The notes beneath the pieces were generated by a model. The model saw only the letters and a list, made by a program, of their open reading frames with translations. It did not search any database and was not told the DNA's origin. A stretch of 45,426 nucleotides of DNA, from NCBI GenBank assembly GCA_964652795.1, contig CAZZBF010000001.1, positions 49,593 to 95,018 on the forward strand. Direction: 5' to 3'. This document shows positions 8,373 through 39,589 of the stretch, one piece after another. The DNA comes from an uncultured Syntrophales bacterium (GTDB lineage: Bacteria; Desulfobacterota; Syntrophia; Syntrophales; JADFWA01). Numbering within the stretch: the first letter of the stretch is position 1; every line of letters begins with the position of its first letter. The position numbers and the translations under genes are program-made.

Positions 8373-8399
8373 ATCAATTCCTGATCTTTCTTTTAGCGG

Positions 8400-10910: not shown

Positions 10911-10968
10911 TATTGTCTTTACTCCTGTTTTTCCGAGCCTGTCTCACACGGGCATATAAACCGGAATA

Positions 10969-12786: not shown

Positions 12787-13268
12787 TTCTTCTTCTCCTT
12801 GCTAATGGCCTTCAATATCTTTGTTGCCTTTTGAGGAGTTAAATGGCCGTGCACTTTCTGGTCAATTGTCATACAGGGAGCCAGAGCACAGCATCCTATG
12901 CATGCCACGGTTTCGAGAGAAAATTTTCCGTCATCGGTCGTTTCACCCTCTTTTATGTTAAGGCGTCTCTTAACTTGTTCGAGTATTTGTTCCGCGCCTC
13001 CGACGTGGCATGCCGTTCCACGGCACAGGCATATTACATGGTCGCCCGGGCGCGTGAATTTGAATTGAGTATAAAATGTGGCCACGCCGTAGATATAGCT
13101 CTGTGAGACATCGAGGTATTTCGCGATGCGCTTTACCGAGTCTTCAGATATATATCCGAATTTTTCCTGCACTCCCTGCAGAATCGGTATTAAGCTGTCC
13201 AGATACCGATTATAAGTTTGAAGTATTTTTTGTAATTCTTCTGAAACGTTCGCCACCGGTATTTTCAA
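12783..13268 (-). CDS. NuoE / HydC-like [2Fe-2S] thioredoxin-like subunit
   Basis: Carries CLCRGTACHVGG and CIGCCALAPCM. The start codon at 13266-13268 is TTG, not ATG, so start confidence is moderate; AGGAAGGA lies about 15 nt upstream. Confidence 0.75.
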   Translation of the reverse strand: MKIPVANVSEELQKILQTYNRYLDSLIPILQGVQEKFGYISEDSVKRIAKYLDVSQSYIYGVATFYTQFKFTRPGDHVICLCRGTACHVGGAEQILEQVKRRLNIKEGETTDDGKFSLETVACIGCCALAPCMTIDQKVHGHLTPQKATKILKAISKEKKK

Positions 13269-19050: not shown

Positions 19051-19094
19051 AAGCGGTGGTTTCAGATGTAATGATGCCACCGCTTTATTTTATG
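19051..19094. terminator. Hairpin terminator shared by the convergent gdhA and cobQ genes
   Basis: AAGCGGTGG-17nt-CCACCGCTT followed by TATTTTAT on + and by ATTGTTTT on -. It overlaps the cobQ stop codon. Confidence 0.55.
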
Positions 19095-20621: not shown

Positions 20622-21401
20622 TTACACAACAGTACGAACCGGAACCCCTTCCTGTTCGAGATAGGACTTGATCTCCTCGACGGTATAGTGTTGGAAATGC
20701 ACCATGGAAGCAATGAGTGCCGCGTCCGCACCTGCTTTTACAAAAACATCCCTGAGATGCTCCGGCCTGCCGGCACCCCCCGAGGCAATGACGGGGATGT
20801 TCACCGCAGAGGATATCAAAGCTGTCAAATTCAGTTCATACCCATCATTTGTTCCGTCGGCATCAATAGAATTGAGACAGATCTCGCCGGTACCCATATC
20901 CCGGGCCTTTTTTGCCCACTCAACCGCATCAACACCCATAGGAGTCCTGCCGCCGTTTATCCAGACCTCGTATCCCGATGGTAGTTCAGCGCTCTTTCCC
21001 ACTTTTTTTGCATCCATCCCCAATACGATACATTGACTTCCGAAAATCTTCGCCCCTTCGGAAATCAGCTCCGGATTCAAAACGGCAGCGGTATTAACGC
21101 TGATTTTTTCAGCCCCGGCTTTTAATACATCATACATATCGGCAAGTGAACTGATACCGCCTCCCACTGAAAAGGGAATAAAGATGTTTTTTGCGACATC
21201 GCTTACTACATCGATTATAATTTTTCTCTTATCCGATGACGCGGTAATATCATAAAATACCAGTTCATCAACACCCTGGTCGTAATATTCCCTGGCCATC
21301 TCAACCGGATCACCGATATCGACATTGCCTTTAAATCTGATTCCTTTTGTTGTTTTGCCTTCTCTTACATCGAGGCAAATAATAATTCTTTTACTGAGCA
21401 T
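20622..21401 (-). CDS. hisF: Imidazole glycerol phosphate synthase cyclase subunit HisF, or a HisF-family paralogue
   Basis: [17 protein letters not shown]...[31 protein letters not shown]...[13 protein letters not shown]. The start ATG at 21401 lies 2 nt after the hisH stop codon. Confidence 0.85.
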
Positions 21402-21403
21402 TG

Positions 21404-22015
21404 TTATGCCGTCCCGTCCCACTCACAAAAATTTTTTAATATCCGAAGGCCGTGTCTTCCGCTTTTTTCAGGGTGAAACTGCATTGCGAGAACGTTCCCC
21501 TTCCCGATGATTGATGCAAACTCAACCCCGTATTCGGCCGTTGCTACGACGTCGTCGCGCCGCTCCGGATCGGGATAATATGAATGGACAAAATAGTATT
21601 GCGCTCTCTCATCAATACCGGCGAGAACGGGATGCGGGCGGACAGCGCTAATATTGTTCCATCCCATGTGGGGAATTTTCAAATTGGCAGTACGAAACTT
21701 TTTCGCACTACCCCGTATCACACCGAGACAGGAAGCGCTATTTTCTTCGCTCCTGTCGAGGACTATCTGAGCACCGAGACATATCCCCAGAAACGGGACT
21801 CCTCCGCCAATCACGTCATATATCACTTGATCGAGACCCGACGTTTTCATGACATCCATCGCGGCACCTGCCGCTCCAACGCCCGGTAATATGACTCTTT
21901 CGGCAGACAGTATTTCCAGCGGCCTGTCGGTTATACGGCACTCCTTACCTATGTGGACAAGGGCCCTCTCAACGGACGTAAGATTTCCCGCTTTGTAATC
22001 AATTATTGCTATCAT
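21404..22015 (-). CDS. hisH: Imidazole glycerol phosphate synthase glutaminase subunit HisH (class I GATase)
   Basis: [19 protein letters not shown]...[11 protein letters not shown]...[11 protein letters not shown]...HSYY. It overlaps the upstream GlmS-like gene's stop by 17 nt. Confidence 0.85.
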
Positions 22016-25000
22016 GCTCGTTCGATGAATCAGTCTCCTTTAATTTCATCATTTTGCCGACAATCATATCGACACCCTCGCCCAAGAGAAATTCAATAGA
22101 AATTTTGTCAAGGTACGTATCGTCCCAGTTAAGGTTATACTCATTGACAAGATTGAAGATTTTATTGAATTTATCTCCGAGAACTTCTTTCTTCTCCGCC
22201 GCCGTCAAATCGTCCCTGAAAACAACATGAAGTAGCAGGATATGTCTGATCCTATGGTTTTTACCCAGGACCGACATGATAATGATCGAAGCTTTATCCA
22301 ACTTCCCAAGTCCCGCATATATTTCTCCGGTTCTTATGATCGTTCGCTTGGTTCCCAGAAGAGCGCGTTTTTCTTCAACCCTCGATTTCATTTCCAGTGA
22401 AATTCCGCCTCTTTCACGAATTGATATAACTGTATCTTCTCCCGGGGTTCCGTCGACATCAAGATTTTCAACGTCATACAGGGTATAACCACGAATTTTG
22501 GATAGTGCCCCTTGGAGCCTTCGCGCGGCGGCCCCATCTTTGGTCGTAAGATTTTCCAGCGAAAATTCGAGATCTTTCAAGAAATCGAAGATGATTCCTT
22601 TGATCATTTCACCCTTTCTGCTTGTACCCACCGTAACGGTTTTCGCCTGGTGCCTGATTGCATCGATGGGGCGTGACAACTCATCGATGGCTTTGCCAAG
22701 ACAGATATCCAGCATGTCGAGAGGAGATGAGGAAATTCTTTTGTCTCTAAATTCTTCCCAGAAGTCCTCCAGCGGCAATTTTCCGATACTATACTTTAAA
22801 AGAAGCGGCATATCTGAGGCAATCTCGGTGCTCAGGGAAGAAAAAAAGCCCTTATTTTTTCTTAAATTAAATGCTTTGGTAAAATCCGCTACGATTTTAT
22901 GGAGTCCAGTGTTTGCAATCTTTTCGAAGAGTGTTTCGTTTCTGGCATCAAGTTCCAGCACCTTGTGTGATAAGGTATTCCTGAAATTCTTAAAAAATTC
23001 CCCTTCTTCATTAATACTGCAGGCCGCGTAATAACCCCATATATGTCCCGCTAACGTATTAAGTATGACCGCTGTAGAGAATGTTGACCTCGGGACGTAA
23101 ATGACCGAATCCGCCACATGATCAAATCTCGTTTCATCTTCGTCTGTAATGACAACAACCGATCCCTCATGAGCTTTAAAGATTGCAGCGTCTTTAACTA
23201 TATCTTCTACAACGGTTTCGGGGGTACCTGCCGCACAGACGATGATAAGCGGTTCGGCGGAAAGGTCTATATGTTTCTTGTTTTCCACTATATCGGACGA
23301 TATGGTCTTGTAACACAGTTCGCTCAACTTTATTCTGATCTCATCGGCGGCAACTTTATTTGAACCGCTCCCGACCACTGCCCAGTATTTCTTTTCTTTT
23401 ACAACGTCCCATGCCGATTCACGTATTTTTTCCTTAATAGCAATGACTCTGTCCATTTTTCCGGGAGCACCCTCCAGGTCGACGAGTTCCCTAGTGATTT
23501 GATCATCCGTCATTGTACCCGATATCTTTGCAAAATAGAGCGCGAGGATGTACCCGGCGATTATCTGAGAGTAAAATGCCTTTGTCGATGCAACGGACAT
23601 TTCTATATCTCTACCATCACTGGTATAAAAAACCCCATCGGTCATGTGGGTAATATCCGACTGTCGCCGGTTCACGATAGCTATGGAATGTGCTCCACGT
23701 TCTATTGCCATTGCAACCGCTCGATTTGTGTCAGTCGTCGTGCCCGATTGCGTAACCGCAATGACTAGGGCATGATCAAATTTGTCCTGGAGGGAAAATC
23801 CGCTTAATTCCGAAGCTGTCTTCGCCTCAATATGCAAGTCTCGACCCCTTAAATATTTTGAAAAAGCCTCAACTATTGCAGCGCCGGCTACAGCGGCCGT
23901 TCCCTGGCCTACGACAAAAATAGTTTTGATATTACCGTTTATAATTGCCTCCGACAATGCAGGGGGTATGATATCATTTCCCAGATTGAAGACAACGTTA
24001 TCAGTCGCTCCGTCCTCTTTATATTTTATATGATATTTGCCGCGCATCGTCTTTTGCGCGGAAAGGGGTGCCTCGAAAATCTCTTTCAACAGATAGTGGG
24101 GATAGCCCTTTCGATCGATATCGCGCGTGGTAATCTCCGCTTTCGCCACACAATTATCAGAAATAGGAAGAGCGTGTCCGTCGTAATACAAGGCCTTGAT
24201 TCCCTGAACACCTCCCCCGGCTTTTCGATCAAGGACAAAAATTTGTCCTTTCGTCGCTTGATCTCCCGGAACTCTTTCCGATTCACCATCCATCTTTATG
24301 AACTTAGATGTTACTTCCATCAGCCCGTATAATTCGGAGGAATACATGAATTGTTCGTCACAAAGGCCTATATAAAGAGACTGGCCGCTTCCGCGGAGCG
24401 CAAGAAATACTTTATCTGGTTCGAGGTCACTGCTCATGGCGATAGCGTGAGACCCTTCAAAATCATTCAGGGCAAGGCGAAAGGCCTCCAGAAGAGAGTG
24501 TCCCGAGGAAAGATACCGCTCGATCTGAAGTGGTACTATCTTCGTATCCGTTTTCACGGTATCGTCTATGAGTGATTGTCCTCCTGTTTCAATCCCCACC
24601 CTTAGTGTAGAGTAATTATCTATATCCCCGTTTAAAGCCGCATTGATTGACCAGTTCCCTTCTCCGTAGTGAGGATAATACTTTAGCGGCAAAAAAGATC
24701 CCGAGTCTTCATCGAATACTTTGTCCAGGGTGAAATTATTGATGGGATGACAATTTTCTTCAGTGATGGACCCCACCGATGCCCATCTTGTATGAGCCAT
24801 ATAGGAATCCATTGCAATCGGTTTATGAATAACCGTCTGGAATATCCGATCATTTCGGATTCGATCTCGCAAATACCTGCCGTTTTCCCCAAGTTCACCG
24901 GTTACCGATGCTTTTTTATACGTAAACGATAGAATGACCGGGATGCCTTCTCTGCCATTTTTTGTTGCGTGGATAGAACCGTCATGTAGATCGCCCGGTT

Positions 25001-25793
25001 CTACCCGGTTCAGCCATTCATCATAGAGATTTTTTGTTTTAAAATTCTCGATTAACGTATCGAGATCCTTCGTTTGCTCCATAGTAAAAGTGATTTGTAT
25101 ACCAGCAGAATCTCTCCCCCTTACCTCTAAATTGTCAATTGCATTTAATAACAGATTGATATTTCTGTATTTTCTAAGACTTTCCCGGGGAATATCCGCT
25201 TTTTTGTCCGTTCCGGCAAGAAAGAAAAATCCGTCAATATTGGCAAGGATGTCTTTTTCGAGGGCCCACGACGCATCTTTCAGACGAATGATCGAATTGT
25301 TAATATGTTCCATCTGTCCGGAGGTGAAACCGAACACATATTTTTCAATAAAGTCTTCTTCTTGTTCTATAAAGGCCTTCAGGTTCTCCGAAAGACGGGA
25401 AATATTTTGTATACCGTCATCCGTAAAAAAAACGTGCTCAAAAGTTGAATCTTCCTTCAAAATCTTGATAGCATTTTCTAAATCATTAAGTGCCGCTGGG
25501 CTTCCAAGGTAATCAACAGTATTCAGCGATTTATTGACTATTTTTTCTATACCGGTCCCCTGAATCACATTACAATTACTGGTAATGCGATTGACGATGT
25601 CATCGTCTCCGGCTGCGGCATCTCCTTTGATCGTAAGGATTCCCGCAAGACCGCACAACAGGGTATCGGGAAGAATAGGAAATAGAAGTATCGAACCGGG
25701 TGGCACAGTTCGAATATCACGCCCGATATAAATGTTTAGATACTTGAAAAAATTCCATATTCTTGCTGAAATTTTTTTGATGGGTTTTAACAT
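21999..25793 (-). CDS. Expanded (1264 aa) GlmS-family class-II glutamine amidotransferase with tandem SIS domains
   Basis: A 46-aa N-terminal leader precedes CGLAGIL (Ntn Cys). A ~190-aa insertion precedes RGRDSAGI, followed by HTRWASVG and NGDIDNY. The GlmS inter-domain linker KGYPHYLLKEIFEAP is present. Two SIS domains follow (GQGTAAVAG, VTQSGTTTDT) and a GlmS-like tail AKTVTVG. After that comes a ~230-aa C-terminal region of unknown nature. Confidence 0.7.
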   Translation of the reverse strand: MLKPIKKISARIWNFFKYLNIYIGRDIRTVPPGSILLFPILPDTLLCGLAGILTIKGDAAAGDDDIVNRITSNCNVIQGTGIEKIVNKSLNTVDYLGSPAALNDLENAIKILKEDSTFEHVFFTDDGIQNISRLSENLKAFIEQEEDFIEKYVFGFTSGQMEHINNSIIRLKDASWALEKDILANIDGFFFLAGTDKKADIPRESLRKYRNINLLLNAIDNLEVRGRDSAGIQITFTMEQTKDLDTLIENFKTKNLYDEWLNRVEPGDLHDGSIHATKNGREGIPVILSFTYKKASVTGELGENGRYLRDRIRNDRIFQTVIHKPIAMDSYMAHTRWASVGSITEENCHPINNFTLDKVFDEDSGSFLPLKYYPHYGEGNWSINAALNGDIDNYSTLRVGIETGGQSLIDDTVKTDTKIVPLQIERYLSSGHSLLEAFRLALNDFEGSHAIAMSSDLEPDKVFLALRGSGQSLYIGLCDEQFMYSSELYGLMEVTSKFIKMDGESERVPGDQATKGQIFVLDRKAGGGVQGIKALYYDGHALPISDNCVAKAEITTRDIDRKGYPHYLLKEIFEAPLSAQKTMRGKYHIKYKEDGATDNVVFNLGNDIIPPALSEAIINGNIKTIFVVGQGTAAVAGAAIVEAFSKYLRGRDLHIEAKTASELSGFSLQDKFDHALVIAVTQSGTTTDTNRAVAMAIERGAHSIAIVNRRQSDITHMTDGVFYTSDGRDIEMSVASTKAFYSQIIAGYILALYFAKISGTMTDDQITRELVDLEGAPGKMDRVIAIKEKIRESAWDVVKEKKYWAVVGSGSNKVAADEIRIKLSELCYKTISSDIVENKKHIDLSAEPLIIVCAAGTPETVVEDIVKDAAIFKAHEGSVVVITDEDETRFDHVADSVIYVPRSTFSTAVILNTLAGHIWGYYAACSINEEGEFFKNFRNTLSHKVLELDARNETLFEKIANTGLHKIVADFTKAFNLRKNKGFFSSLSTEIASDMPLLLKYSIGKLPLEDFWEEFRDKRISSSPLDMLDICLGKAIDELSRPIDAIRHQAKTVTVGTSRKGEMIKGIIFDFLKDLEFSLENLTTKDGAAARRLQGALSKIRGYTLYDVENLDVDGTPGEDTVISIRERGGISLEMKSRVEEKRALLGTKRTIIRTGEIYAGLGKLDKASIIIMSVLGKNHRIRHILLLHVVFRDDLTAAEKKEVLGDKFNKIFNLVNEYNLNWDDTYLDKISIEFLLGEGVDMIVGKMMKLKETDSSNEHDSNN

Positions 25794-25860: not shown

Positions 25861-27477
<1,617 letters not shown>

Positions 27478-27514: not shown

Positions 27515-29668
27515 TTACGCTACATCTTCACTAACCAATTCTTCCAGAAATTCTGCCTGAATTGCACCTCGCGGGCAAATATTCACACACGTATAACAGA
27601 GGGAACACCGCGCGGGATCAATTGTGAAGATCTCCCCGTTCCGTGTAATCGCTTCCTGAGGACAGTTGTCGATACATTTATCACAATATATACAGGTACC
27701 GCAACTCATACACCGGTCTATATCTTCCTTCTCATCACCGAAATAAATCAATTGCATTCTCCTGGTCGGAACGAGCCGTTTTTCCGGATACACAAACTTC
27801 TTACCCGTAAGGTTCGCATCGATTTCCATGGCCGCCAGTCGACCCGAGCCAATCGCGTCGGTAAGAATCCCGGGTTTTACTATATCGCCGCATCCGTATA
27901 CTTTCTTGTTACTGCTTTTAGATGATTTATCGGCGGTAATCATGTACCCTCGTTCATCTATGAAGACAGATTCGTGTAAAAATGATGTATCAGGTGCCTC
28001 ACCGATACTGATGAAGACAACATCGGCCTTTTCAGGCTTTCCTTCCGTAAAATATACATTCTCCGAGTCAAGTTTTTTAACAAACTTCGGCCAGAGTATT
28101 TTGGTTCCCCTCTCTTCTGCCAGCATCAGTTCTTTCCCGAAGGCCAGCGGTTTTTGAATATCTACAGCCGTCACCATTTTAGCTCCAAGGCGCCAGGCCT
28201 CACAGGCTATATCCATACCGACATTACCGGCACCGATTATGACAACGTTTTTATCCGAAAGATCCATCGGTCTCCCTTCATTAATATCAATGAGAAACTG
28301 GAGACCCGAAAGTATCCTCTCACCGCCTTCATACGGTATCCTTTTGGTTACCTGTGCTCCAGTGGCTACAACGATGACATCACTTGCATCGTAAATATCC
28401 TGCAAAGATTCCCTGTCAATCTTTACACCCAGGTTAAATTCAATCGGGAGAGTTCTGATCCTTTTTATATCTTTGTCAAGCAATTCATCGGAGAGACGTT
28501 CCTGCGGAATTGCCTTTCTGGCTTTTCCTCCCAGGCTATCCATAGAATCGTAAACCTTGACCTTATACCCTCTCCGGGAAAGCTGCCACGCCGCCGAAAG
28601 TCCCGCAGGTCCGGCACCGATGATCGAAATAGTCTCGTTCTTCTTCCCCTTTATCGTCGGCTTGAAATTCGGATAATATTTCCGGGCAAGCTCCTGTACC
28701 GGGACAGGCCCGTCAATCAAGTTTCTGGTACATGCTTCCATGCATGGGGCAGGACATGTAGTACCACACACCGTCGTGCGGAATGGCGAGAACTCATCCA
28801 TTAAAAGCTGCGCTTCTTTTACTTTCCCGTCTTTTATCAAATTAAAAAATACCGGCGTCGGAATTCCCGTGGGACAGTTGAATGTACATGGAGGTGTCAG
28901 ATTGAAATGTTTCGGCACCTGTGTTTTTATATTCATTCCCGGAGTATATAAACTGGCAAACGGCCGGTGTCCCCGTCTCGTAATTTTCACAAAATCGTTA
29001 ACCGAAATACCGGACAGATCGATATTTATATCTTTCCCGTATTCCATGAGACTTGTCTTAAGGAATCCTGTGTCGTCTTTGTCCATATCCCCGAAGATAG
29101 CACCGGTTCCGAGCTGATATTTCTGCACGTCACCTCTAACATAAATAACACCTCCGTGGATCCCCGTTCCGACGCTGCCACCCACCGGCAATGATTTTCC
29201 TTCAAGATTAAGAACTATTACCCTTCCACCTGCCATATATTCACCGCAGTAATCTTTTGCGGTCCCTCCTATAATAAGCCAGGGAATCTGGTCAAAATAC
29301 TCTTTCATGTGGATGGCGGCCCTGTATTCGACATCTCCTTTAATAAAGACCTTGCCGCCCCGCATAGAATGTCCCGGTATCTCTCCCGCCTTTCCATGAA
29401 TTACTATTTTTCCGGCATTCATTGTATTGGCCAGACCATCCTGGGCGTTTCCGTAAACGATAAGGGTAGGACCATTTAAGAATGCTCCCAGGTCCTGTCC
29501 GGGTGTACCGTATATGTGAAATTCCGCGTTGCCGTCAAGACCGCCGGCGAGGTATCTCTGTCCCAGGACACCCTTGAGGACAATCTCTTTCTCACCCCGT
29601 GAAAGTAATCCCCGTATCTGCCTGTTTAACGTTTTGTAATATAATCCTTTTGCAACGATCGTGATCAT
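27515..29668 (-). CDS. Glutamate synthase GXGXG domain (GltB domain 3) fused to a GltD-like FAD/NAD(P) oxidoreductase and a C-terminal 2x[4Fe-4S] ferredoxin
   Basis: N-terminus GVLGQRYLAGGLDGNAEFHIYGTPGQDLGAFLNGPTLIVYGNAQDGLANTMNAGKIVIHG (GXGXG repeats). The middle carries CPTGIPTPVFFNLIKDGKVKEA...CGTTCPAPCMEAC and IIGAGPAGLSAAWQL (GltD-type). The C-terminus carries CMSCGTCIYCDKCIDNCP and CSLCYTCVNICP. Confidence 0.75.
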   Translation of the reverse strand: MITIVAKGLYYKTLNRQIRGLLSRGEKEIVLKGVLGQRYLAGGLDGNAEFHIYGTPGQDLGAFLNGPTLIVYGNAQDGLANTMNAGKIVIHGKAGEIPGHSMRGGKVFIKGDVEYRAAIHMKEYFDQIPWLIIGGTAKDYCGEYMAGGRVIVLNLEGKSLPVGGSVGTGIHGGVIYVRGDVQKYQLGTGAIFGDMDKDDTGFLKTSLMEYGKDINIDLSGISVNDFVKITRRGHRPFASLYTPGMNIKTQVPKHFNLTPPCTFNCPTGIPTPVFFNLIKDGKVKEAQLLMDEFSPFRTTVCGTTCPAPCMEACTRNLIDGPVPVQELARKYYPNFKPTIKGKKNETISIIGAGPAGLSAAWQLSRRGYKVKVYDSMDSLGGKARKAIPQERLSDELLDKDIKRIRTLPIEFNLGVKIDRESLQDIYDASDVIVVATGAQVTKRIPYEGGERILSGLQFLIDINEGRPMDLSDKNVVIIGAGNVGMDIACEAWRLGAKMVTAVDIQKPLAFGKELMLAEERGTKILWPKFVKKLDSENVYFTEGKPEKADVVFISIGEAPDTSFLHESVFIDERGYMITADKSSKSSNKKVYGCGDIVKPGILTDAIGSGRLAAMEIDANLTGKKFVYPEKRLVPTRRMQLIYFGDEKEDIDRCMSCGTCIYCDKCIDNCPQEAITRNGEIFTIDPARCSLCYTCVNICPRGAIQAEFLEELVSEDVA

Positions 29669-29671
29669 GTA

Positions 29672-31195
29672 TCAATCTCCGGCATGCTTAATTCCGAGAA
29701 TGCGCAATTCCTCGCTGTTCATGCCCACACCTCTCAATCGATTTCTATTTCCCCTTATCGCCTCTATAGCACTGATTCCCATGGACCCCATCAGTTCCTT
29801 GATCTCCTCTCCCCAAGCATGGAGGAGGTTTTTCAATGCCTCTGCCGCCTCACCCACATCGATCCTCTCAGCCAATCCCGGTTTGTTTGTCGTAATTCCG
29901 TACGGACACTTGCCGGTAAAGCACCGCTGGCACATACCGCATCCCAGTGATATGAGAACCGGTGTGGCTACATAAACCGCGTCAGCGCCAAGACAGATAG
30001 CTTTCAAAACATCTGAAGAACTTTGAATCCCTCCCGATGCAACAAGACTGACTTTATTCCTGATACCCTCTTCGGTCAATCGTCTGTCTGCTGCAGAAAT
30101 GGCAAGTTCAATAGGAATCCCCGTATTCTGGCGGATCTGAAGCGGCGTTGCGCCTGTACCGCCTCGAAAACCATCGATGGCGATAATATCCGCCCCGGCT
30201 CGGGCAATACCGCTTGCAATGGGAGCAACATTGTTAACGGCTGAAATCTTTACTGAAACCGGAATCTTGTAGTCAGTTGCCTCTTTTATTGCAAAAATGA
30301 GCTGTCTCAAATCTTCGATCGAATAAATGTCGTGATGAGGTGCCGGCGACAACGCATCGGTGCCTTCCGGGATCATCCGCGTCTGCGATATCGCTTCCGA
30401 GACCTTCTCCCCCGGAAGATGGCCGCCTATCCCAGGCTTTGCTCCCTGCCCTATTTTTATCTCCACTGCCGCAGCCGATTTCAGGTAGTCCTCGCTTACA
30501 CCAAATCGGCCTGACGCTACCTGGACGATTGTATTCTGTCCGTACTGTCTCAGTTTCTGATGAAAACCGCCTTCTCCCGTATTCCAGTAGGTTCCAACTT
30601 CCTTTGTCGCTATTGCTTCCGCTTCCTGGACGCGAAGATTCACGGCCCCAAAACTCATGGCTCCAAACATTATAGGAACTTCAAGCTGAAGCTGCGGACC
30701 AACTTCTCCCCCATAGTGGTCAGATTTGCCTCCAAGATATCGTCGAATCTCCATCGGTTCCCGGAGCGGATCTATCGAAGGGTTCGTTACCTGACAGGCA
30801 TCGAACATCATATGGTCAAAGTATCTCTTTTGAGGGCCTGTAGCCCCGGTTCCAACCAACAAAACGCCGCCTTTCGATCCCGCCTGGCGCCAGATATTGC
30901 TGACATGATGGGGCGTCCAGTACCCATGAGACGTATGCATAGGTTGATTAACAACGTGAATTGCTCGGTGAGGACACATTTTGACACATCTCTGGCATGC
31001 ATTGCAGGCGCTCATATTCGCCCACGGTTGATAGAGGACAGTACCGTTTCTCCCCTTGACAGGTTTCAGCGATATTTCTCCGAAGGAACATTCACCCACA
31101 CAGATCCGGCACCCGTTTTCATAGTCACACCGCAACAGGTCGAACTCTGGATAAAACGAAGGCATTATTTTCCAGTTATTCTTCATGTGAGCCAT
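29672..31195 (-). CDS. Glutamate synthase FMN-binding catalytic domain protein (archaeal-type GltB domain 2) with an N-terminal 2x[4Fe-4S] ferredoxin
   Basis: CRICVGECSFGEI...CNACQRCVKMCP, then a GltB central-domain signature (GAMSFGAVNLRVQEAEAIATKEVGTYWNTGEGG...VKISAVNNVAPIASGIARAGADIIAIDGFRGGTGATP). The ATG shares one nucleotide with the upstream gene's TAA. Confidence 0.85.
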   Translation of the reverse strand: MAHMKNNWKIMPSFYPEFDLLRCDYENGCRICVGECSFGEISLKPVKGRNGTVLYQPWANMSACNACQRCVKMCPHRAIHVVNQPMHTSHGYWTPHHVSNIWRQAGSKGGVLLVGTGATGPQKRYFDHMMFDACQVTNPSIDPLREPMEIRRYLGGKSDHYGGEVGPQLQLEVPIMFGAMSFGAVNLRVQEAEAIATKEVGTYWNTGEGGFHQKLRQYGQNTIVQVASGRFGVSEDYLKSAAAVEIKIGQGAKPGIGGHLPGEKVSEAISQTRMIPEGTDALSPAPHHDIYSIEDLRQLIFAIKEATDYKIPVSVKISAVNNVAPIASGIARAGADIIAIDGFRGGTGATPLQIRQNTGIPIELAISAADRRLTEEGIRNKVSLVASGGIQSSSDVLKAICLGADAVYVATPVLISLGCGMCQRCFTGKCPYGITTNKPGLAERIDVGEAAEALKNLLHAWGEEIKELMGSMGISAIEAIRGNRNRLRGVGMNSEELRILGIKHAGD

Positions 31196-32259
31196 TATGC
31201 TGTCCCTTGATCTGTTTCCTTTTGTATTTCGATGATGACCGGTTCGCCACCTCTGGGTGACCAGAGGCTTTCCACTTCAGGAGATAATAATCTGATACTG
31301 CACTCCTCGGACGATGCATAATAGGTATTGCCCGATCTGGCACAGACAACGGGACGGAGTTTATTCCTGTCATTCAGGACAATCGCACCGTCTTTGTGGG
31401 TCAGGACGATTCCGAACGGACCGTTCACAATAGCAGGACCGTAAATCTGTCGAAGATATCTCTTTTTTTTATCATTCGTCCTGTCTATTTCTTCCCAGAG
31501 CGATGGTGCCATGACATAGCATGCGTCTTCATCTGAGAGCCCATCTTTTCTTGTAAGTTTATCGAAGATGTAAGAAATTACCTCTGTATCCGTCTGCAAC
31601 ATGCAATAGTATCCGTACATCTGAAGCCACCGAAGATTCGTCCCATAACTGGTTATCTCTCCGTTGTGAACCACTGTCTTATCAAGAATCGTAAAGGGAT
31701 GGGCACCACCCCACCAACCAGGTGTATTGGTAGGAAACCTGTTATGAGCTACCCACATATACCCGGCATAATCCTGTATTCCGAAGTAGTCCGCAATATC
31801 TTCGGGATAGCCCACACCCTTGAAAACTCCGAGATCTTTTCCTGACGATACTACAAATACGCCTTCCATCTTGTTGATAGTCATAACGAGATCAACGATG
31901 TAATCCGCTTCGGTCTGTTGAGGTGATAAAAATTCCTTGATAGGTTTTAAAAAGTATCTTTTAAAATACGGTCCCTTCGGAATACGCTCGTTCGGATATA
32001 CGGGAATCTGCTCCGACTGGGTAATGTTCGTCCTGCTTGCCAGGTAATCTTCAACAACCGGTATAACGGAACTATTGCGATCCCCTTCGTACATGACGTG
32101 AAAAGCGTATTTATCCTTGTGATCAGGATAACAGCCATAGACAGCAAAGCCGCCACCAAGGCCGTTTCCCCTTTCCCGCTGGATTCGTATGGCTTCCCTG
32201 ATATGACTTCCATCAATAATCTGCCCATCGGTATTAACAATGCCAACGATTCCGCACAT
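31195..32259 (-). CDS. Glutamate synthase class-II glutamine amidotransferase domain protein (archaeal-type GltB domain 1)
   Basis: MCGIVGIV Ntn-cysteine start. Stand-alone ~354-aa GATase-2 domain. Confidence 0.85.
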   Translation of the reverse strand: MCGIVGIVNTDGQIIDGSHIREAIRIQRERGNGLGGGFAVYGCYPDHKDKYAFHVMYEGDRNSSVIPVVEDYLASRTNITQSEQIPVYPNERIPKGPYFKRYFLKPIKEFLSPQQTEADYIVDLVMTINKMEGVFVVSSGKDLGVFKGVGYPEDIADYFGIQDYAGYMWVAHNRFPTNTPGWWGGAHPFTILDKTVVHNGEITSYGTNLRWLQMYGYYCMLQTDTEVISYIFDKLTRKDGLSDEDACYVMAPSLWEEIDRTNDKKKRYLRQIYGPAIVNGPFGIVLTHKDGAIVLNDRNKLRPVVCARSGNTYYASSEECSIRLLSPEVESLWSPRGGEPVIIEIQKETDQGTA

Positions 32260-32290
32260 TGATGTATCTCCTTAGGTCGTTTTTGTAAAA

Positions 32291-33004
32291 TTACCTGCTT
32301 ACTCCGGTTTTCGAGGACTGACGGCACAAATCCACCAGCCACATGAAGTTTGAATAGATCATTTTTGCCTGGGCAAAAAAATCACGCTCTATTCCTCTAT
32401 ATACATCGATATACTCATGCAGTTCCGGTTTACCGTTAAACCATTCCATCAATATATCAGATGTAATCTCAACGTGGAACTGAAGGCCATACGCGTTACC
32501 ATAACGGAAACCCTGATTAGGACATCCATTTGCGGTTGCGAGTAATAGCCCTCCATGAGGAATTTCAAATGTGTCCTCGTGCCATTGAAACACTTTCATC
32601 ACATCCGGCAGTCCCTGAAAGAGAATATCTTGTTTCCCTTCATCGGTTACGAAGACATTTTTCCAGCCAAGCTCTTGCTCTGAAGCCTTCACTACCCTAG
32701 CGCCACAGACCCTGGCGATCAGCTGAGCACCCAAACAAATTCCAAGGATGGGAATATTGCTCTCTATGGCCTGCTCCAGAAACTCGGCTTCTCTTCGCAA
32801 AAAGGGGTATTTGTCTTCCTCATGAACATTCATCGGTCCGCCCAGAGATATGATGGCATCATATCTCTGGGCGACGGCAGGAATTCTTTCGTCTTTATAC
32901 AGCTTAACCGCTTTGATGCTTGCACCACAATATTTCAGAAACTCTTCAAGAGTACCCGCTCCTTCCGATGCGGCATGAGTAATGACGAGTACTTTTTTTT
33001 TCAT
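32291..33004 (-). CDS. Class-I glutamine amidotransferase (GuaA-N-terminal-like stand-alone GATase1)
   Basis: [12 protein letters not shown] catalytic Cys motif and downstream HED/HVE residues. ATG at 33004, 5 nt after the glnA stop. The listed longer ORF start is TTG. Confidence 0.7.
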   Translation of the reverse strand: MKKKVLVITHAASEGAGTLEEFLKYCGASIKAVKLYKDERIPAVAQRYDAIISLGGPMNVHEEDKYPFLRREAEFLEQAIESNIPILGICLGAQLIARVCGARVVKASEQELGWKNVFVTDEGKQDILFQGLPDVMKVFQWHEDTFEIPHGGLLLATANGCPNQGFRYGNAYGLQFHVEITSDILMEWFNGKPELHEYIDVYRGIERDFFAQAKMIYSNFMWLVDLCRQSSKTGVSR

Positions 33005-33009
33005 TATAA

Positions 33010-34344
33010 TCAAAGAATTGGCAAATATTTTTCCAGTTCATAATCACTGACATGCGTCCTGTATCTGTCCCATTCGATCTTTTTATTCGCAATGAACTTT
33101 CCAAATATATGGTCACCGAGAGCTTCACGAACGAGATCGCTTCCCTCAGTATATTGTATAGCTTCTCCAAGACTTCCCGGTAACGCCTCGATTCCTTTGG
33201 CCTCGCGTTCGGCAGGCGTCATTTCGAAAATATCTTCCTCTATCGGTGCAGGCAGTTCATACCCTTCTTCAATTCCTTTAAGTCCGGCAGCCAGCATGAC
33301 TGAAAAGGCAAGATATGGATTACAGGCAGGATCAGGACAACGAAACTCCATTCGCGTGGCATTTGCCTTACCCGGTTTGTACATGGGAACACGGATAAGA
33401 GCGGATCGATTTCTCCTTGCCCATGATATATAAACCGGCGCCTCGTAGCCCGGCACGAGCCTCTTGTATGAGTTCACCCATTGAGCAACAACTGAAGACA
33501 GTTCAGTCGCATGTTTCAGAAGTCCCGCAATATAACTTTTGCCGATACCTGATAAAAAATATTTATCTTTTTCATCAAAGAAGGCATTATCCGATCCTTT
33601 AAAAAGGGACTGGTGCACGTGCATTCCACTTCCATTTTCACCAAACACCGGTTTTGGCATAAAGGTTGCGTAAACGCCATGCGACATCGCTACTTCCTTG
33701 ACTGTAAGACGATATGTCATAGCCGCATCCGCCATTGAAAGCGCATCCGTGTATCGCAGGTCAATTTCATGCTGGCTGGGAGCCACTTCGTGATGGCTGT
33801 ATTCTACTTGGATTCCCATATCCTCGAGGGTTAAAATTGTGTCTCGCCGGAGATCACTTCCAGCGTCTAAAGGCGTAAGATCAAAATAACCGCCGCGATC
33901 AAGATATTCCGGTTTTCCATAGGCACTCTTGAAATAGAAAAACTCAAGCTCCGGTCCTACATTCATTGTATATCCCATATCAGCAGCCTTTTTTACGTTC
34001 CGTTTCAGAGCATAGCGGGGGTCACCTTCATAGGGGGTACCGTCTGGTTTTAGAACATCACAAAACATACGGGCTACATTCATCTCCTCGCTGGCGCGCC
34101 AGGGAAGAATAACAAAAGTCTCCGGATCAGGTTTTGCCATCATATCACTCTCTTCAATTCTCGCAAATCCCTCAATTGACGACCCATCAAAGCCCATACC
34201 TTCCGCGAAAGCACCTTCCAACTCAGATGGTGAAATAGCGAAGCTCTTTAAAAAACCTAATACATCAGTAAACCATATACGGATAAACTTTACATTTTTG
34301 TCCTTTACTTCTTTCAACACATATTCCACATCTTTTTTTGCCAT
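33010..34344 (-). CDS. glnA: Glutamine synthetase type I-alpha (444 aa, Bacillus-like)
   Basis: MAKKDVEYVLKEVKDKNVKFIRIWFTDVLG...FDGSSIEGFARIEESDMMAKPDPETFVILPW, MHVHQSLF and RVPMYKPGKANATRMEFRCPDPACNPYLAFSVMLAAGL. Its length of 444 aa, versus 473 aa for the second GS in this window, indicates the insertion-free I-alpha form. Confidence 0.85.
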   Translation of the reverse strand: MAKKDVEYVLKEVKDKNVKFIRIWFTDVLGFLKSFAISPSELEGAFAEGMGFDGSSIEGFARIEESDMMAKPDPETFVILPWRASEEMNVARMFCDVLKPDGTPYEGDPRYALKRNVKKAADMGYTMNVGPELEFFYFKSAYGKPEYLDRGGYFDLTPLDAGSDLRRDTILTLEDMGIQVEYSHHEVAPSQHEIDLRYTDALSMADAAMTYRLTVKEVAMSHGVYATFMPKPVFGENGSGMHVHQSLFKGSDNAFFDEKDKYFLSGIGKSYIAGLLKHATELSSVVAQWVNSYKRLVPGYEAPVYISWARRNRSALIRVPMYKPGKANATRMEFRCPDPACNPYLAFSVMLAAGLKGIEEGYELPAPIEEDIFEMTPAEREAKGIEALPGSLGEAIQYTEGSDLVREALGDHIFGKFIANKKIEWDRYRTHVSDYELEKYLPIL

Positions 34345-34489: not shown

Positions 34490-34505
34490 GGCAACATGTG
34501 TGCCA
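34490..34505 (-). promoter_or_regulatory. Sigma54 (-24/-12) promoter for the GS-GOGAT-amidotransferase operon
   Basis: The minus strand reads TGGCAC-acatg-TTGCC (GG-N10-GC), about 145 nt upstream of the glnA ATG at 34344. Confidence 0.55.
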
Positions 34506-34638: not shown

Positions 34639-36210
34639 TTAGGTACGATATCGCTTGGTGTTTATATTAAATTTCTGTATCCGGAGACCGATAATCCTTT
34701 CACTTGTGCCGAGTATTTGTGCCGCCTTTGCTATATTTCCGCGGGTTGTCTTGAGTGCATCCATTATCAAATCTCTCTCCAGTCCCTCCAGCTCACCTTG
34801 AAGGGTACCATAGGGAATTGTACCCGTAGACGTTGATGTCTGAAGCGTTGGCGGGAGGTGGTATCCGTAAATAACACCTTCATTGCTGAGAAGTACGGCA
34901 CGCTCAATACAATTCTCCAGTTCCCGTACATTACCCGGCCAGTGGTAGCTCATAAGCATATCGATCGCGTGAGTACACGTTCGCTGAATCCTCTTATTAT
35001 TCGCTTTAGCGTATCTCTCCACAAAAAAGTCAGTGAGCAGCAATATGTCTGTTTTCCGCTCACGAAGCGGCGGGATATAGATAGGAAAGACATTCAATCG
35101 GTAATATAAATCCTCCCTGAATTTCCCTTCTTCCATCAGCTTTTCAAGGTTTCGATTCGTTGCGGCAATAATTCGTACATCGACTTTTATCGTGGTTGTC
35201 GCACCAACTCTTTCAAATTCCCGTTCCTGAAGCACCCTCAATAACCGTATCTGAACCATGGGTGGAAGATCTCCCACCTCGTCGAGGAAGATGGTGCCTC
35301 CCTGTGCCATTTCAAATCGACCTTTCCTCTCATGCGTTGCACCGGTAAAAGCGCCTTTCTCATGTCCGAATAGTTCGCTTTCCAGGACAGTCTCCGGTAA
35401 GGCCGCACAATTTACCTTTATGAAAGGTTTATTTGCCCTCAGGCTATTATAATGAATCGCGTTTGCTACTAATTCCTTACCGGTTCCACTCTCACCACGA
35501 ATCATAACGGTAGCGTTGCTTTTAGAGACCTGCGCGATAAGGTCATAGACCTCTTTCATACCCTTCGATTTTCCGATGATATTTGATGGTTCAAAGCGTT
35601 CCTTCAGCTCACTTTGCAGGCGCAGATTTTCTTGAATAAGTATTTCACGTTCTTCCTGTATCTCCTGACGAAGCCGTACTGCCTGAGCTACCATTGACGC
35701 AATAATTGAGAGCAGGCGCACATCCTCTTTGAGGGATATGGACCCCTCAAAGAGTCTGTCGGCACTCAGCGTGCCGATCACCTCCGCCCCTATTTTTATC
35801 GGTACACATATAAATGAAATATCCTCTTTTTTGAGGTCTTTACGGGCACCGGTTCTGTCTAAAAACATCGGCTCATTGGAAATGTGCGGAACTATGACGG
35901 GTTGACCCGTCTCCACAACTTTGCCTATAACACCCTCACCTATCTGATATCTTCCTCTTCTTCGCTGTAATTCCGATAGGCCATGAGCCGCTTCCATATA
36001 AATCTCTTCCGTTCTTCGATTAACGAGGGTCAGCGCACCCCGCGCCATGCCCATCCTTTCCGCCAGCGCATTCAATACAGGCCCCACCACTTCACGAAGG
36101 TCCATGCTGCGCCCGAGCGCCTGACTGACCTCCCAGAGAAGTTTAAGCTCCTTGATTTCTCTGTTGGATTTAACTTCCTTCTCTTCTTCAATACTTACCA
36201 TACTTACCAT
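34639..36210 (-). CDS. Sigma54-dependent transcriptional activator with GAF, AAA+ and Fis-type HTH domains (NifA-like architecture)
   Basis: N-terminal GAF ([19 protein letters not shown]...), then an AAA+ sigma54-interaction domain ([35 protein letters not shown]) and a C-terminal HTH ([16 protein letters not shown]). AGGAG RBS lies 9 nt upstream of the ATG at 36210. Confidence 0.85.
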
Positions 36211-36504: not shown

Positions 36505-36520
36505 TGGCACCATATTTGCT
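36505..36520 (+). promoter_or_regulatory. Sigma54 (-24/-12) promoter for the amtB-glnB-glnA operon
   Basis: TGGCAC-catat-TTGCT (GG-N10-GC), about 50 nt upstream of the amtB ATG. Imperfect inverted-repeat arms GTACCACCATTAT (36408-36420) and ATAAGTGGTAAT (36442-36453) lie 60-100 bp upstream as a candidate UAS. Confidence 0.6.
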
Positions 36521-36569
36521 TAGCACCAAATTGTAGTATTTGCGATAAATCAATTTGGAGGTTTTTGGA

Positions 36570-37796
36570 ATGAGTTCAGGTAATACAGCATGGGTATTGT
36601 TGTCTTCAGCTTTAGTTCTAATTATGACACCGGGAGTAGCTCTTTTTTACGGAGGTTTGGCGAGAAGAAAGAATATTCTCTCCATTTTAATGCAATGCTT
36701 CTTCATTATTTGTCTTGTCGGACTACAGTGGGTTTTATACGGATATTCTCTGGCTTTTGCCCCCGACGCCGGTCACGGTCTTATAGGAGGCTTACAATGG
36801 GTGGGCTTGACCAATGTTGGTCAACTTCCCGGTCCATACTCAGATAAGATTCCTCATCTTGCCTTCATGATCTTCCAGGCTATGTTTGCGATTATCACAC
36901 CTGCTCTGATGGTCGGGGCATTCGCCGAAAGGATTAAATTCTCCGCTTTTGCCATTATGATGCTCCTCTGGTCAACCTTTGTGTACGATCCGATCGCGCA
37001 CTGGGTATGGGGAGGTGGCTGGCTCGCAAATATTGGTGCCCTTGACTTTGCCGGCGGTATTGTCGTTCACGTCAGTTCCGGTGTATCCGCTCTTGTCATG
37101 GCAATTTTAATCGGGAAGCGTTGCGGTTATGATAAACAGCTGTTCACACCGCATAACTTGCCACTTACAGTACTGGGAGGCGCACTTCTCTGGTTCGGCT
37201 GGTTCGGATTTAATGCCGGCAGTGCCCTCGAAGCAAATGGTCTTGCCGCAAATGCTTTCGTGACAACAAACACTGCGACCGCTGCCGCAGGTCTTACCTG
37301 GGCACTGATAGAATGGCAGAGACATGGTGTTCCCACAGTTCTCGGCATTGTATCAGGAGCGCTCGCCGGACTCGTGGCTATTACCCCTGCATGCGGTTTC
37401 GTAAGTCCCCTTTCTTCAATATTCATCGGAGTTTTTGCGGCTGTCTTCTGCTATATGGCTGTAACAATTTTGAAACCAAAGTTGGGTTACGATGATTCTC
37501 TGGATGTTTTCGGAATCCATGGTGTTGGTGGCATGTGGGGTACGATTGCAACAGGAATATTTGCCAGCATCGCCATTAATGAGGGTGGCGCAAACGGCCT
37601 TCTCTACGGAAACGCCAAGCTATTTATTGTCCAAGGTATATATATGCTTTCATGTATTGTTTATGCAGTTGTCATGACCTGGATTCTTTTTAAATTCGTC
37701 GATGCCCTGTTCGGCATGAGAGTGGAAAAACAGGATGAGTTGATCGGCCTCGATTTAACACAGCACAAGGAAGCTGCATATACCCTTTTGGAATAG
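36570..37796 (+). CDS. amtB: Ammonium transporter AmtB
   Basis: AWVLLSSALVLIMTPGVALFYGGLARRKN... with multiple TM helices. Start placed at ATG 36570, with GGAGG 8 nt upstream. The listed ORF start 36555 is TTG. Confidence 0.9.
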   Translation: MSSGNTAWVLLSSALVLIMTPGVALFYGGLARRKNILSILMQCFFIICLVGLQWVLYGYSLAFAPDAGHGLIGGLQWVGLTNVGQLPGPYSDKIPHLAFMIFQAMFAIITPALMVGAFAERIKFSAFAIMMLLWSTFVYDPIAHWVWGGGWLANIGALDFAGGIVVHVSSGVSALVMAILIGKRCGYDKQLFTPHNLPLTVLGGALLWFGWFGFNAGSALEANGLAANAFVTTNTATAAAGLTWALIEWQRHGVPTVLGIVSGALAGLVAITPACGFVSPLSSIFIGVFAAVFCYMAVTILKPKLGYDDSLDVFGIHGVGGMWGTIATGIFASIAINEGGANGLLYGNAKLFIVQGIYMLSCIVYAVVMTWILFKFVDALFGMRVEKQDELIGLDLTQHKEAAYTLLE

Positions 37797-37807
37797 GAGG
37801 ATTAACA

Positions 37808-38146
37808 ATGAAATATGTCGTCGCAATTATTCAACCCCACAAGTTGGAAGAAGTAAAACAAGCCCTTGAAAATGTGGAAGTTCATTTGATGACCGTATCT
37901 AATGTCCTCGGTAGGGGAAGACAAAAAGGATTTGCCGAGGTTTATCGTAGCGTCAAGGAAGTCGGTCTTCTGAAGAAACTAAAAATCGAGATTGCCATTA
38001 ATGAAGATTTTGTCGAACCAACAATCGATGCAATCACAAAAGGGGCATTTTCCGGAAATCCCGGCGACGGAAAGATATTTGTTCTCGATCTCCATGATGT
38101 CGTTCGTATCGGTACCGGTGAACGGGGCGGAAAAGCAATCGGGTAA
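37808..38146 (+). CDS. glnK: Nitrogen regulatory protein PII (GlnB/GlnK)
   Basis: MKYVVAIIQPHKLEEVKQAL...GRGRQKGFAEVYRSV (T-loop with Tyr)...GDGKIFVLDLHDVVRIGTGE, 112 aa. AGGAGG RBS is present. It is 11 nt after amtB. Confidence 0.9.
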   Translation: MKYVVAIIQPHKLEEVKQALENVEVHLMTVSNVLGRGRQKGFAEVYRSVKEVGLLKKLKIEIAINEDFVEPTIDAITKGAFSGNPGDGKIFVLDLHDVVRIGTGERGGKAIG

Positions 38147-38173
38147 CTTACAAGAATAGAAGGAGTTATGTTT

Positions 38174-39589
38174 ATGGGCGCTAAAGAATTAACAAAATTA
38201 GCAAAAGAAAAGAAGCTGGAATTCATTGATTTGAAGTTTACCGATATTCCCGGCCTGTGGCAGCATATAACCATACCAATTCAAGAACTTGATGAAGGTC
38301 TTTTTATTAATGGTATCGGTTTCGATGGTTCGAGTATCCGTGGGTTCCAACCAATAAACGAAAGCGATATGCTGATTAAACCGGATCCCCAGTCGGCCTT
38401 TATTGACCCGTTTATGGAAGATCCGACATTAAGTATGATTTGCAATGTCTCAGATCCTCTTTCCCATATCCCCTATTCGCGGGATCCACGAAACGTTGCT
38501 AGGAAAGCCGAGCGATACCTGTCGGCCACGGGCATTGCCGATCAGGCATTCTTTGGTCCCGAACCCGAATTTTATGTGTTTGACGATATCCGTTTTGACC
38601 AAACTCATAATACCGGGTATTACGCAATCGACTCGAAAGAAGGTTTCTGGAATTCGGGCAAACGAGAAGAACCAAACCTCGGTTATAAGCCCCGATACAA
38701 GGAAGGATATTTTCCGGTTCCGCCGACAGACAGTCTGCACAACCTCAGGGCAAAGATGTCGAAAGTCATGAACGAAGTCGGTATTGATGTCATACTTCAC
38801 CACCACGAGGTGGCCACTGCTGGACAGTGTGAAATTGGTGTTAATGTTAACACCCTGGTTAACAGTGGGGACATTCTTATGAAATTCAAGTATGTGGTAA
38901 AGAATGTTGCTCTGGCTTACGGTAAGACGGTCACGTTCATGCCTAAACCACTTTTTATGGACAATGGATCTGGAATGCATGTCCATCAGAGCCTATGGAG
39001 AGCGGGGAAAAATAAATTTTATGATCCTGATGGTTATGGTGGATTGAGCCGCATGGGGATTCACTACATCGGCGGATTGCTTCATCATGCGCCATCTCTA
39101 CTTGCTATCACGTCACCAACGACAAATTCTTATCGGAGGCTCGTCCCGGGCTATGAAGCACCGATAAACCTCGTTTATTCAAAGAGAAACCGGAGTGCCT
39201 GTGTTCGAATTCCCATGTACTCACAAAGCGAAAAGTCTAAGAGAATCGAATTTCGCCCGCCGGACTGCTCCTGCAACCCCTATCTGGCACTGGCCGCTAT
39301 GCTTATGGCAGGGCTGGATGGCATTGAAAACGAGATAGAACCCCCCGCTCCCATCGAGACAGATATTTTTGAGCTTTCGGGGGAAGAGAGAAAAGACATG
39401 CAATCCACGCCCGGCTCATTGGAAGAGGCCTTGGATAATCTCGAAAATGACCATGATTATCTTTTGAAGGGCGATGTCTTTACTGAGGATCTTCTTAAAA
39501 TGTGGATAGGATATAAGAGAAAGCGTGAGGTGGATCAGATACGGCTTCGTCCTCACCCATATGAATTTGCCCTTTATTACGATATTTAA
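38174..39589 (+). CDS. glnA: Glutamine synthetase type I-beta
   Basis: [11 protein letters not shown]...FDGSSIRGF...MHVHQSLW...[39 protein letters not shown]. The adenylylation-loop Tyr of the enterobacterial enzyme (NLYDLP) is replaced here by Phe (DIFELS). Start taken at the second ATG, 38174, for better SD spacing. Confidence 0.9.

Follow-up and report, generated by a model that had tools for sequence, protein, structure and literature searches.

From which donor, and by which route, do electrons reach a glutamate synthase whose large subunit is divided over separate genes? For the 'archaeal-type' split glutamate synthases, the donor and the wiring of the subunits have never been established, and a 2021 review by Vanoni describes these enzymes only as open reading frames (ORFs). 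We focus here on a 45,426-nucleotide stretch of DNA from an uncultured Syntrophales bacterium (GenBank assembly GCA_964652795.1, contig CAZZBF010000001.1, positions 49,593 to 95,018; hereafter the window), in which the interval 27515-34344, bounded by the start of the first gene and the stop of the last, holds five ORFs on the minus strand. They encode a glutamine synthetase (GS), a stand-alone class-I glutamine amidotransferase (GATase1) and the three parts of a glutamate synthase (GOGAT, or GltS): the glutaminase GltB1, the synthase GltB2, which contains the flavin mononucleotide (FMN) domain, and the beta-helix GltB3, which is fused to a reductase and a ferredoxin. Split GOGAT is already known, also from bacteria and under sigma-54 control, and the fusion is an unnamed variant of a known enzyme that offers a clue to donor and wiring alike. 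We judge it probable that the region is an ammonium-assimilation operon controlled by sigma-54 and an enhancer-binding protein (EBP), combining a GS of type I-alpha (GSI-alpha) with a three-subunit, NADH-dependent glutamate synthase that carries a built-in reductase.

The protein at the centre of this reading is the 717-residue product of the last gene (27515-29668, minus strand, as for all features of the operon). Along it, Pfam models follow one another in the order GXGXG (PF01493; 106 bits, residues 13-183), Fer4_20 (32 bits, 258-329), Pyr_redox_2 (103 bits, 347-603) and Fer4/Fer4_9 (658-704), so that it comprises the GltB3 beta-helix (residues 1-243; 28940..29668), a cluster-binding domain (258-329; 28682..28897), Rossmann domains for flavin adenine dinucleotide (FAD) and NAD(P)H (340-622; 27803..28651) and a C-terminal ferredoxin domain (650-705; 27554..27721). 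This confirms what an earlier note on this DNA had proposed, namely a third GOGAT domain continuous with a GltD-like FAD-NAD(P) module and a terminal ferredoxin. The beta-helix part is 40-50% identical to many stand-alone GXGXG proteins of 245-260 residues and is modelled by AlphaFold2 (AF2) with a pLDDT of about 80-95.

The split boundaries and the fusion are genuine and represent neither chance ORFs nor artefacts. Full-length fusions, 60-95% identical, form more than 100 clusters at 90% identity, drawn from metagenome-assembled genomes (MAGs) of Syntrophales, Desulfobacterales, 'Deltaproteobacteria' and Spirochaetota, and the window itself is 94-95% identical to uncultured Syntrophales MAGs that serve as species-representative genomes. 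At 50% identity there are at least 8 clusters, including long-linker forms of 781-801 residues in Nitrospirota, Desulfobacterales and Veillonellaceae/Bacillota, as opposed to short-linker forms of 717-738 residues; a 782-residue orthologue, from a Veillonellaceae genome, belongs to a cultured carrier. The fusion spans five phyla, and together with the split boundaries it recurs at about 15 MAG loci, in Syntrophales, Desulfobacterales, Spirochaetota, Nitrospirota and Bacillota. When the fetched loci were searched with tblastn, the GltB1-GltB2-fusion triad was found conserved in 12 of them, preceded in the Syntrophales type by GS and the EBP. The full order, from a divergent amtB through EBP, GS, GATase1, GltB1, GltB2, the fusion and pyrG to a long glmS-like gene, is kept, completely or partly, in L001, L002 and L010-L014, and the bare triad occurs in four Spirochaetota loci. 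A Nitrospirae MAG (L017, 4221-9392) has a more divergent three-gene version, whose 801-residue fusion has a much longer linker between GXGXG and reductase, with the cysteine patterns and the D-I-Q motif discussed below unchanged. The assignment of the three large-subunit domains to separate ORFs, also made in the earlier note, stands on the same domain calls and the same triad. In public databases the fusion goes by names such as 'FAD-dependent oxidoreductase', '4Fe-4S ferredoxin' and 'putative selenate reductase', and such generic or wrong names mean that GOGAT can be missed when the metabolism of MAGs from Syntrophales, Desulfobacterales, Spirochaetota and Nitrospirota is reconstructed. Our literature searches, whose coverage ended short of subscription journals, found no paper describing or assaying a GltB3-reductase-ferredoxin fusion.

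The two partner subunits carry sequence features of a glutamate synthase. GltB1 (31195..32259; 354 residues; GATase_2, E=1.9e-13) is a class II glutaminase of the N-terminal nucleophile (Ntn) type, which begins MCGIVG and so has the N-terminal catalytic cysteine (Cys1) in place, and it is 74-98% identical across the 12 loci. GltB2 (29672..31195; 507 residues; Glu_synthase, 430 bits), aligned to the GltS of Bacillus subtilis (7mfm_G) and Synechocystis (1llw_A), conserves QGAKPG.GG.LPG.KV and SP.PHHDIYSIEDL. Its cluster motif reads C419-x2-C422-x2-C425-x4-C430-P, in which C419, C425 and C430 align with the canonical [3Fe-4S] triad C-x5-C-x4-C, and the extra fourth cysteine, C422, gives CxxCxxCxxxxCP, the same motif as in L012 and in the unfused split cluster L022. 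With the signature motifs and the cluster triad conserved, GltS chemistry is strongly predicted. The central domain of GltS (PF04898) is not separate here, giving only a weak match that overlaps the FMN barrel, and L022 likewise lacks a separate central domain. At its N-terminus GltB2 has the ferredoxin-like domain reported in the earlier note (30974..31129; Fer4_9, Fer4_7), with eight cysteines in two groups (C23, C29, C32, C36 and C64, C67, C70, C74) that are predicted to carry 2x[4Fe-4S]; the Pfam Fer4 score of this N-terminus is borderline, at 27.4 against a cutoff of 27.

How the reductase module might be wired can be read from its ligands and nucleotide motifs. We aligned the fusion to Thermotoga maritima NfnB, taking the ligand list from PMC7596348. 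The Fer4_20 domain has six invariant cysteines (C261, C265, C301, C305, C309 and C313), of which C265, C305 and C309 are the counterparts of NfnB proximal-cluster cysteines and C261 and C313 those of two distal-cluster cysteines. Ala328 sits at the position of NfnB Glu117, a ligand of the proximal cluster, where StnC has Lys170; the invariant C301 could give an all-cysteine proximal site, as in GltD. Both Rossmann motifs are present (GAGPAG for FAD, GAGNVG for NAD(P)H), and the GxGxxG motifs and R391 are invariant. In place of the NADPH-binding YRR of NfnB stands D503-I504-Q505, a motif shared by at least 90% of fusion orthologues. An acidic residue ending that beta-strand is the classical signature of NAD(H). 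DsrL enzymes without YRR, furthermore, use NAD(H) (PMC7596348). Asp503 in place of YRR, together with this rule for NAD(H)-type DsrL, thus predicts NADH rather than NADPH as the preferred donor, narrowing the NAD(P)H of the earlier note. An internal control is provided by the window's own canonical NfnB/GltD-like protein (6939-8372), which retains both YRR and CxxCxxxxCxxxCP.

By sequence and predicted fold, the nearest solved relatives of the module are the GltD-like parts of NfnABC (9bov, 9n5u) and StnC (8oh5), followed by NfnB/NfnL (4ylf, 5jca) and then by GltS beta subunits and dihydropyrimidine dehydrogenase (DPD). We rejected its identity as a canonical GltD, as it falls below the model cutoffs, has six of the eight cysteines and carries DIQ instead of YRR; as NfnB, given an operon without an NfnA-like gene, Ala328 at the Glu117 position and the missing YRR; and, on context, as DsrL, there being no dsr genes among the annotated ORFs of the window and a linker of about 30 residues as against some 100. 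What had been called a GltD/NfnB-type module is thus GltD-like, closest to NfnABC, StnC and NfnB and with a DsrL-like architecture, and is not a canonical GltD.

From the domain content, the ligand and nucleotide motifs, the synteny and the promoter observed here, we infer that the proteins form a complex with the following cluster order, NADH preference and activity. GS would make glutamine, which GltB1 would hydrolyse at Cys1; the ammonia would pass to GltB2 and add to 2-oxoglutarate before FMN, yielding 2-iminoglutarate, which FMN would reduce, being recharged one electron at a time through a wire of iron-sulfur (Fe-S) clusters. This wire would have its origin in the FAD of the GltD/NfnB-type module that follows the GltB3 beta-helix in the fusion, and would lead from NADH through FAD, the proximal and distal [4Fe-4S] clusters of the Fer4_20 domain and the C-terminal dicluster domain into the N-terminal dicluster domain of GltB2, and from there through the four-cysteine cluster of the FMN barrel to FMN and 2-iminoglutarate. 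The beta-helix would hold the reductase in place on the synthase as a docking anchor. The joining of GltB3 to a reductase is in effect Rosetta-stone evidence, both that the beta-helix docks the electron-input module and that the donor in these anaerobes is a nicotinamide cofactor, most likely NADH. It also provides a compact three-gene system for expression and cryo-electron microscopy.

Several observations weigh against this reading. First of all, AF2 gives no confident packing of the domains within the fusion (mean pLDDT 81, pTM 0.58, both linkers below a pLDDT of 50). Second, the remaining distal-cluster ligands of NfnB, C39 and C42 of the N-terminal CxxC, have no cysteine counterpart in the fusion, where the aligned stretch holds the invariant H254 and N256. 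The C-terminal domain has ten invariant cysteines (CxxCxxCxxCxxCxxxCP ... CxxCxxCxxxCP) where eight would do, and nearly all of the stand-alone relatives of about 550 residues pair the same six-cysteine C-terminal motif with the same absence of the N-terminal CxxC, a pattern compatible with the C-terminal CxxC (C653/C656) completing the distal cluster; residues 639-655 of this region are below an AF2 pLDDT of 50, and position 659 is Gly in three relatives. Third, the call for NADH draws on a single sequence rule. Fourth, the module scores far below the cutoffs of the GltD and PRK12771 models, with 125 bits against 448 for TIGR01317, 124 against 472 for TIGR01316 and 292 against 516 for the PRK12771-type model NF009410. 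Fifth, the seven predicted clusters exceed the needs of a linear wire. Finally, the literature searches turned up no split or fused GOGAT that had been assayed.

The system can be set beside several known ones. The closest unfused counterpart, L022, is the locus reached via a stand-alone GXGXG relative, and it is a classical split GOGAT cluster of the Thermotoga/Clostridium type, a type exemplified by Clo1313_2030-2036 of C. thermocellum (PMC4676874). Its five genes encode, in order, GATase_2, Fer4 plus Glu_synthase, a 149-residue Fer4 protein, a 416-residue Pyr_redox_2/Rubredoxin_C flavoprotein and GXGXG. As in the window, the Thermotoga/Clostridium-type and Geobacter systems have separate GltB1, GltB2 (with N-terminal Fer4 and CxxCxxCxxxxCP) and GltB3 parts, and the classical operon also contains genes for a flavoprotein of NAD(P)H type and for additional Fe-S clusters. 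The gene content of L022 thus indicates that both systems pair GltB1 and GltB2 with a beta-helix, a flavin reductase and extra ferredoxin clusters. In the window, on the other hand, one GltD/NfnB-type module with a terminal ferredoxin, fused C-terminally to GltB3, replaces both accessory genes. The L022 reductase lacks Fer4_20, and its only local BLAST match to the window module, of 26 bits, lies within the shared Pyr_redox_2 fold. The window system has drawn on a different reductase family and has all three functions on one polypeptide; the same split enzyme has thus acquired reductases of two unrelated kinds.

Among other glutamate synthases, the eukaryotic enzyme joins alpha and beta in one polypeptide and takes NADH as donor (PMC8097209), and its beta-helix is followed by a GltD-type Fe-S/FAD/NAD module in the same order as in the window fusion; its donor is known, whereas in the window NADH is predicted. 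Unlike the eukaryotic enzyme, the window system has only the beta-helix fused, with glutaminase and synthase as separate proteins, and it has no central domain, two added ferredoxin-like dicluster domains and no distal-cluster CxxC. With the bacterial NADPH-GltS (GltB/GltD), it shares the predicted chemistry, the synthase-site motifs and the cofactor logic of FAD, two [4Fe-4S] clusters, the synthase cluster and FMN; it differs in having the large subunit in three parts, no NADPH motif and a four-cysteine instead of a three-cysteine cluster motif in the FMN domain. DsrL and other PRK12771-type proteins share the architecture of the module (a cluster domain at the N-terminus, then an FAD domain into which the NAD(P) domain is inserted, and a terminal 2x[4Fe-4S] domain reached over a linker) and, as here, have lost the cysteines at the NfnB C39/C42 positions and include NADH-type variants without YRR (PMC7596348); unlike DsrL, the window module is fused to a GXGXG domain and has a linker of about 30 rather than about 100 residues. 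Similar wiring is found in DPD/PreTA, a structural match in which a GltD-type FAD leads through four [4Fe-4S] clusters, two of Fer4_20 type and two of ferredoxin type, to an FMN TIM barrel; in contrast to the window system, its barrel family and substrate are others and it has no amidotransferase. The archaeal-type split GOGAT, finally, shares the separate GltB1 and GltB2 ORFs and the N-terminal ferredoxin of GltB2, whereas GltB3 of the window is not stand-alone. The 'archaeal-type' label of the earlier note is thus apt for the gene organisation and not for the origin, as split GOGAT is known in bacteria, including in sigma-54 operons of Geobacter and Desulfovibrio.

The main alternative, which we regard as unlikely, is that reduced ferredoxin is the physiological donor, entering through either of the two ferredoxin-like domains, with the FAD module as an alternative entry or as a link between ferredoxin and NAD(P). 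GltB2 does have its own dicluster domain, as in archaeal forms without a nearby reductase gene, the number of clusters is above the needs of the canonical enzyme, Clo1313_2035 carries the database name 'ferredoxin-dependent glutamate synthase', and the hosts are strict anaerobes. However, across five phyla the enzyme has a dedicated, invariant FAD/NAD(P) module linked to it covalently, the operon of the classical cluster also encodes a pyridine-nucleotide reductase, and no report of ferredoxin-dependent activity for these enzymes was found in the literature searched.

It is very improbable that the system is a flavin-based electron-bifurcating (or dual-donor) glutamate synthase, in which NADH oxidised at an NfnB-like FAD would pass one electron downhill to FMN/iminoglutarate and the other uphill, by way of a ferredoxin-like domain, to an external ferredoxin. 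The idea draws on the bifurcating complexes in which the nearest solved relatives of the module sit (NfnABC, 9bov and 9n5u; StnC, 8oh5; NfnB, 4ylf), on the surplus dicluster domain, which could form a second branch, and on hosts that are energy-limited syntrophs. The NADH-driven reaction is, by textbook potentials, strongly exergonic, which also counts in its favour. Were it true, nitrogen assimilation would feed low-potential electrons to an energy-limited syntroph through the exergonic reduction of iminoglutarate. It rests on resemblance, however, and the homologous FAD in StnC does not bifurcate (PMC10482914); the glutamate ligand of NfnB is replaced here by Ala328, with an all-cysteine site as in GltD being possible, and the operon has no NfnA-like partner.

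More improbable still is that the split GltB-like genes form another amidotransferase, modelled on N-methylglutamate synthase (MgsABC) with a GS-like gamma-glutamylmethylamide synthetase. MgsA, MgsB and MgsC are homologues of GltB1, GltB3 and GltB2, respectively, and lie next to a GS-like gene (PMC6237917). The GS of the window (glnA, 33010..34344; 444 residues; Gln-synt_C, 437 bits), on the other hand, passes the type-I GlnA model TIGR00653 (537 bits, cutoff 429), fails the type-III GS model, and fits true GS (E=1e-155) better than glutamate-methylamine ligase (3e-66). Over its full length it best matches, among PDB structures, GSI-alpha enzymes such as those of Methanosarcina mazei and Bacillus subtilis, and structures of GSI-beta match it only partly, in agreement with the GSI-alpha assignment of the earlier note. 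Gene order and sizes also differ: MgsC has 442 residues as against 507 in GltB2, MgsB is stand-alone with 225, and the Mgs operon lists no reductase gene (PMC6237917). There are no mgd genes among the annotated ORFs, and the locus adjoins amtB-glnK under sigma-54. N-methylglutamate synthase was rejected on GS type, domain content and context. A conventional gltB or gltD that only looks split or fused owing to frameshifts or misassembly, the refutation named in the earlier note, has a negligible chance, being excluded by identical boundaries and full-length fusions in independent assemblies from many samples and phyla, by the absence of the central domain and by extra ferredoxin domains that conventional gltBD lack.

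Returning to the proposed NADH-dependent GS-GOGAT operon, the genes are spaced as in an operon, with a 1-nt overlap between GltB1 and GltB2, a 3-nt gap between GltB2 and the GltB3 fusion, and GS and GATase1 adjoining or overlapping. The coding strand between the five genes, when scanned, contained no terminator-like site, and Rfam and tRNA scans of the window gave no matches. The GATase1 gene as called mechanically (32291-33013; 240 residues) begins at a TTG at 33013, overlapping the stop codon of GS; the more likely start is the ATG at 33004, three codons further on in the same frame (MKKKVLVITH...), giving 237 residues (32291..33004; Pfam GATase, 88 bits). Its nucleophile elbow, GICLG, is intact and the His-Glu pair (FHVE) is present; the best PDB match is TM1158 (1o1y), which is uncharacterised. 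In relatives, GATase1 stays between GS and GltB1, yet it is only 30-56% identical, far below its neighbours. The earlier note had counted it as part of the GS-GOGAT cycle, a role that finds no support, as it is not a known component of that cycle.

Upstream of glnA, by 146 nt, lies a sigma-54 promoter (-24/-12) that matches the consensus exactly (34491..34505, minus strand; TGGCACacatgTTGC) and reads TGGCAC-N5-TTGC. Exact matches are kept at the same position between EBP and GS in five loci (L001, L010, L011, L012 and L014). The EBP (34639..36210, minus strand), which consists of GAF, sigma-54 AAA+ and HTH_8 domains and is kept upstream of GS in L001, L002 and L010-L014, is the probable activator of the GS-GOGAT operon. 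It is NifA-like and passes the equivalog threshold of the NCBIfam 'nif-specific NifA' model (TIGR01817; 565 bits, cutoff 529). There are no nif genes among the annotated ORFs of the window, and the place that the activator keeps among relatives lies ahead of glnA-GOGAT and across from amtB; a general role in activating nitrogen assimilation, like that of DVU1949 of D. vulgaris, is more likely for it than that of NifA. On the plus strand, ORF and domain annotation identifies a divergent operon of amtB (36555-37796; 413 residues), glnK/PII (37808-38146; 112 residues) and a second GS (38168-39589; 473 residues), preceded by another exact sigma-54 match (36505-36519), and this operon probably shares a nitrogen regulon with the GS-GOGAT operon. 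Two GS genes of different length classes are thus arranged divergently around one GAF-type activator.

Comparable regulation is known elsewhere. In D. vulgaris, DVU1823-1821 form a three-gene operon that belongs to a nitrogen sigma-54 regulon under a single-component activator of GAF type, and this control fits that of the window operon. DVU1821 may be the same fusion; the literature shows only the three-gene operon. The split operon of G. sulfurreducens, GSU1235-1239, likewise has an RpoN (sigma-54) promoter and belongs to the nitrogen regulon (PMC2725144).

Elsewhere in the window, a cluster of four minus-strand genes (6939-13268) begins with a NuoE/HydC-like protein of 161 residues (12783-13268), followed by a NuoF/HydB-like protein of 605 residues (10969-12786), a NuoG-like protein of 836 residues (8400-10910; Fer2_4, Fer4_Nqo3, a Molybdopterin fragment and DHODB_Fe-S_bind) and the 477-residue canonical NfnB/GltD-like protein (6939-8372) with its full cysteine motif and NADPH-type YRR. 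It looks like a bifurcating transhydrogenase of the NfnABC/Stn type with the large subunit split in two, and this stretch has a GC content of 0.51 as against 0.39-0.46 in its flanks.

Downstream of the operon, on the minus strand, lies a GlmS-like protein of 1264 residues (21999-25793), about double the normal length, with weak GATase_6/7 matches, a SIS domain and a long extension at the C-terminus; the cysteine motif that is usually N-terminal lies internally ('LCGLAGI' near residue 47). In L002, L003, L010-L012 and L014-L016 the protein is kept downstream of pyrG, and in L013 it follows the fusion gene directly, with 49-89% identity over all of these. Between 19085 and 42737, enzymes that use glutamine are unusually concentrated around the two GS genes; they comprise a CobB/CobQ-like amidotransferase (19085-20527), HisF-like and HisH-like proteins (20622-22015), the long GlmS-like protein, CTP synthase (25861-27468), GATase1, GltB1 and asparagine synthase (41154-42737).

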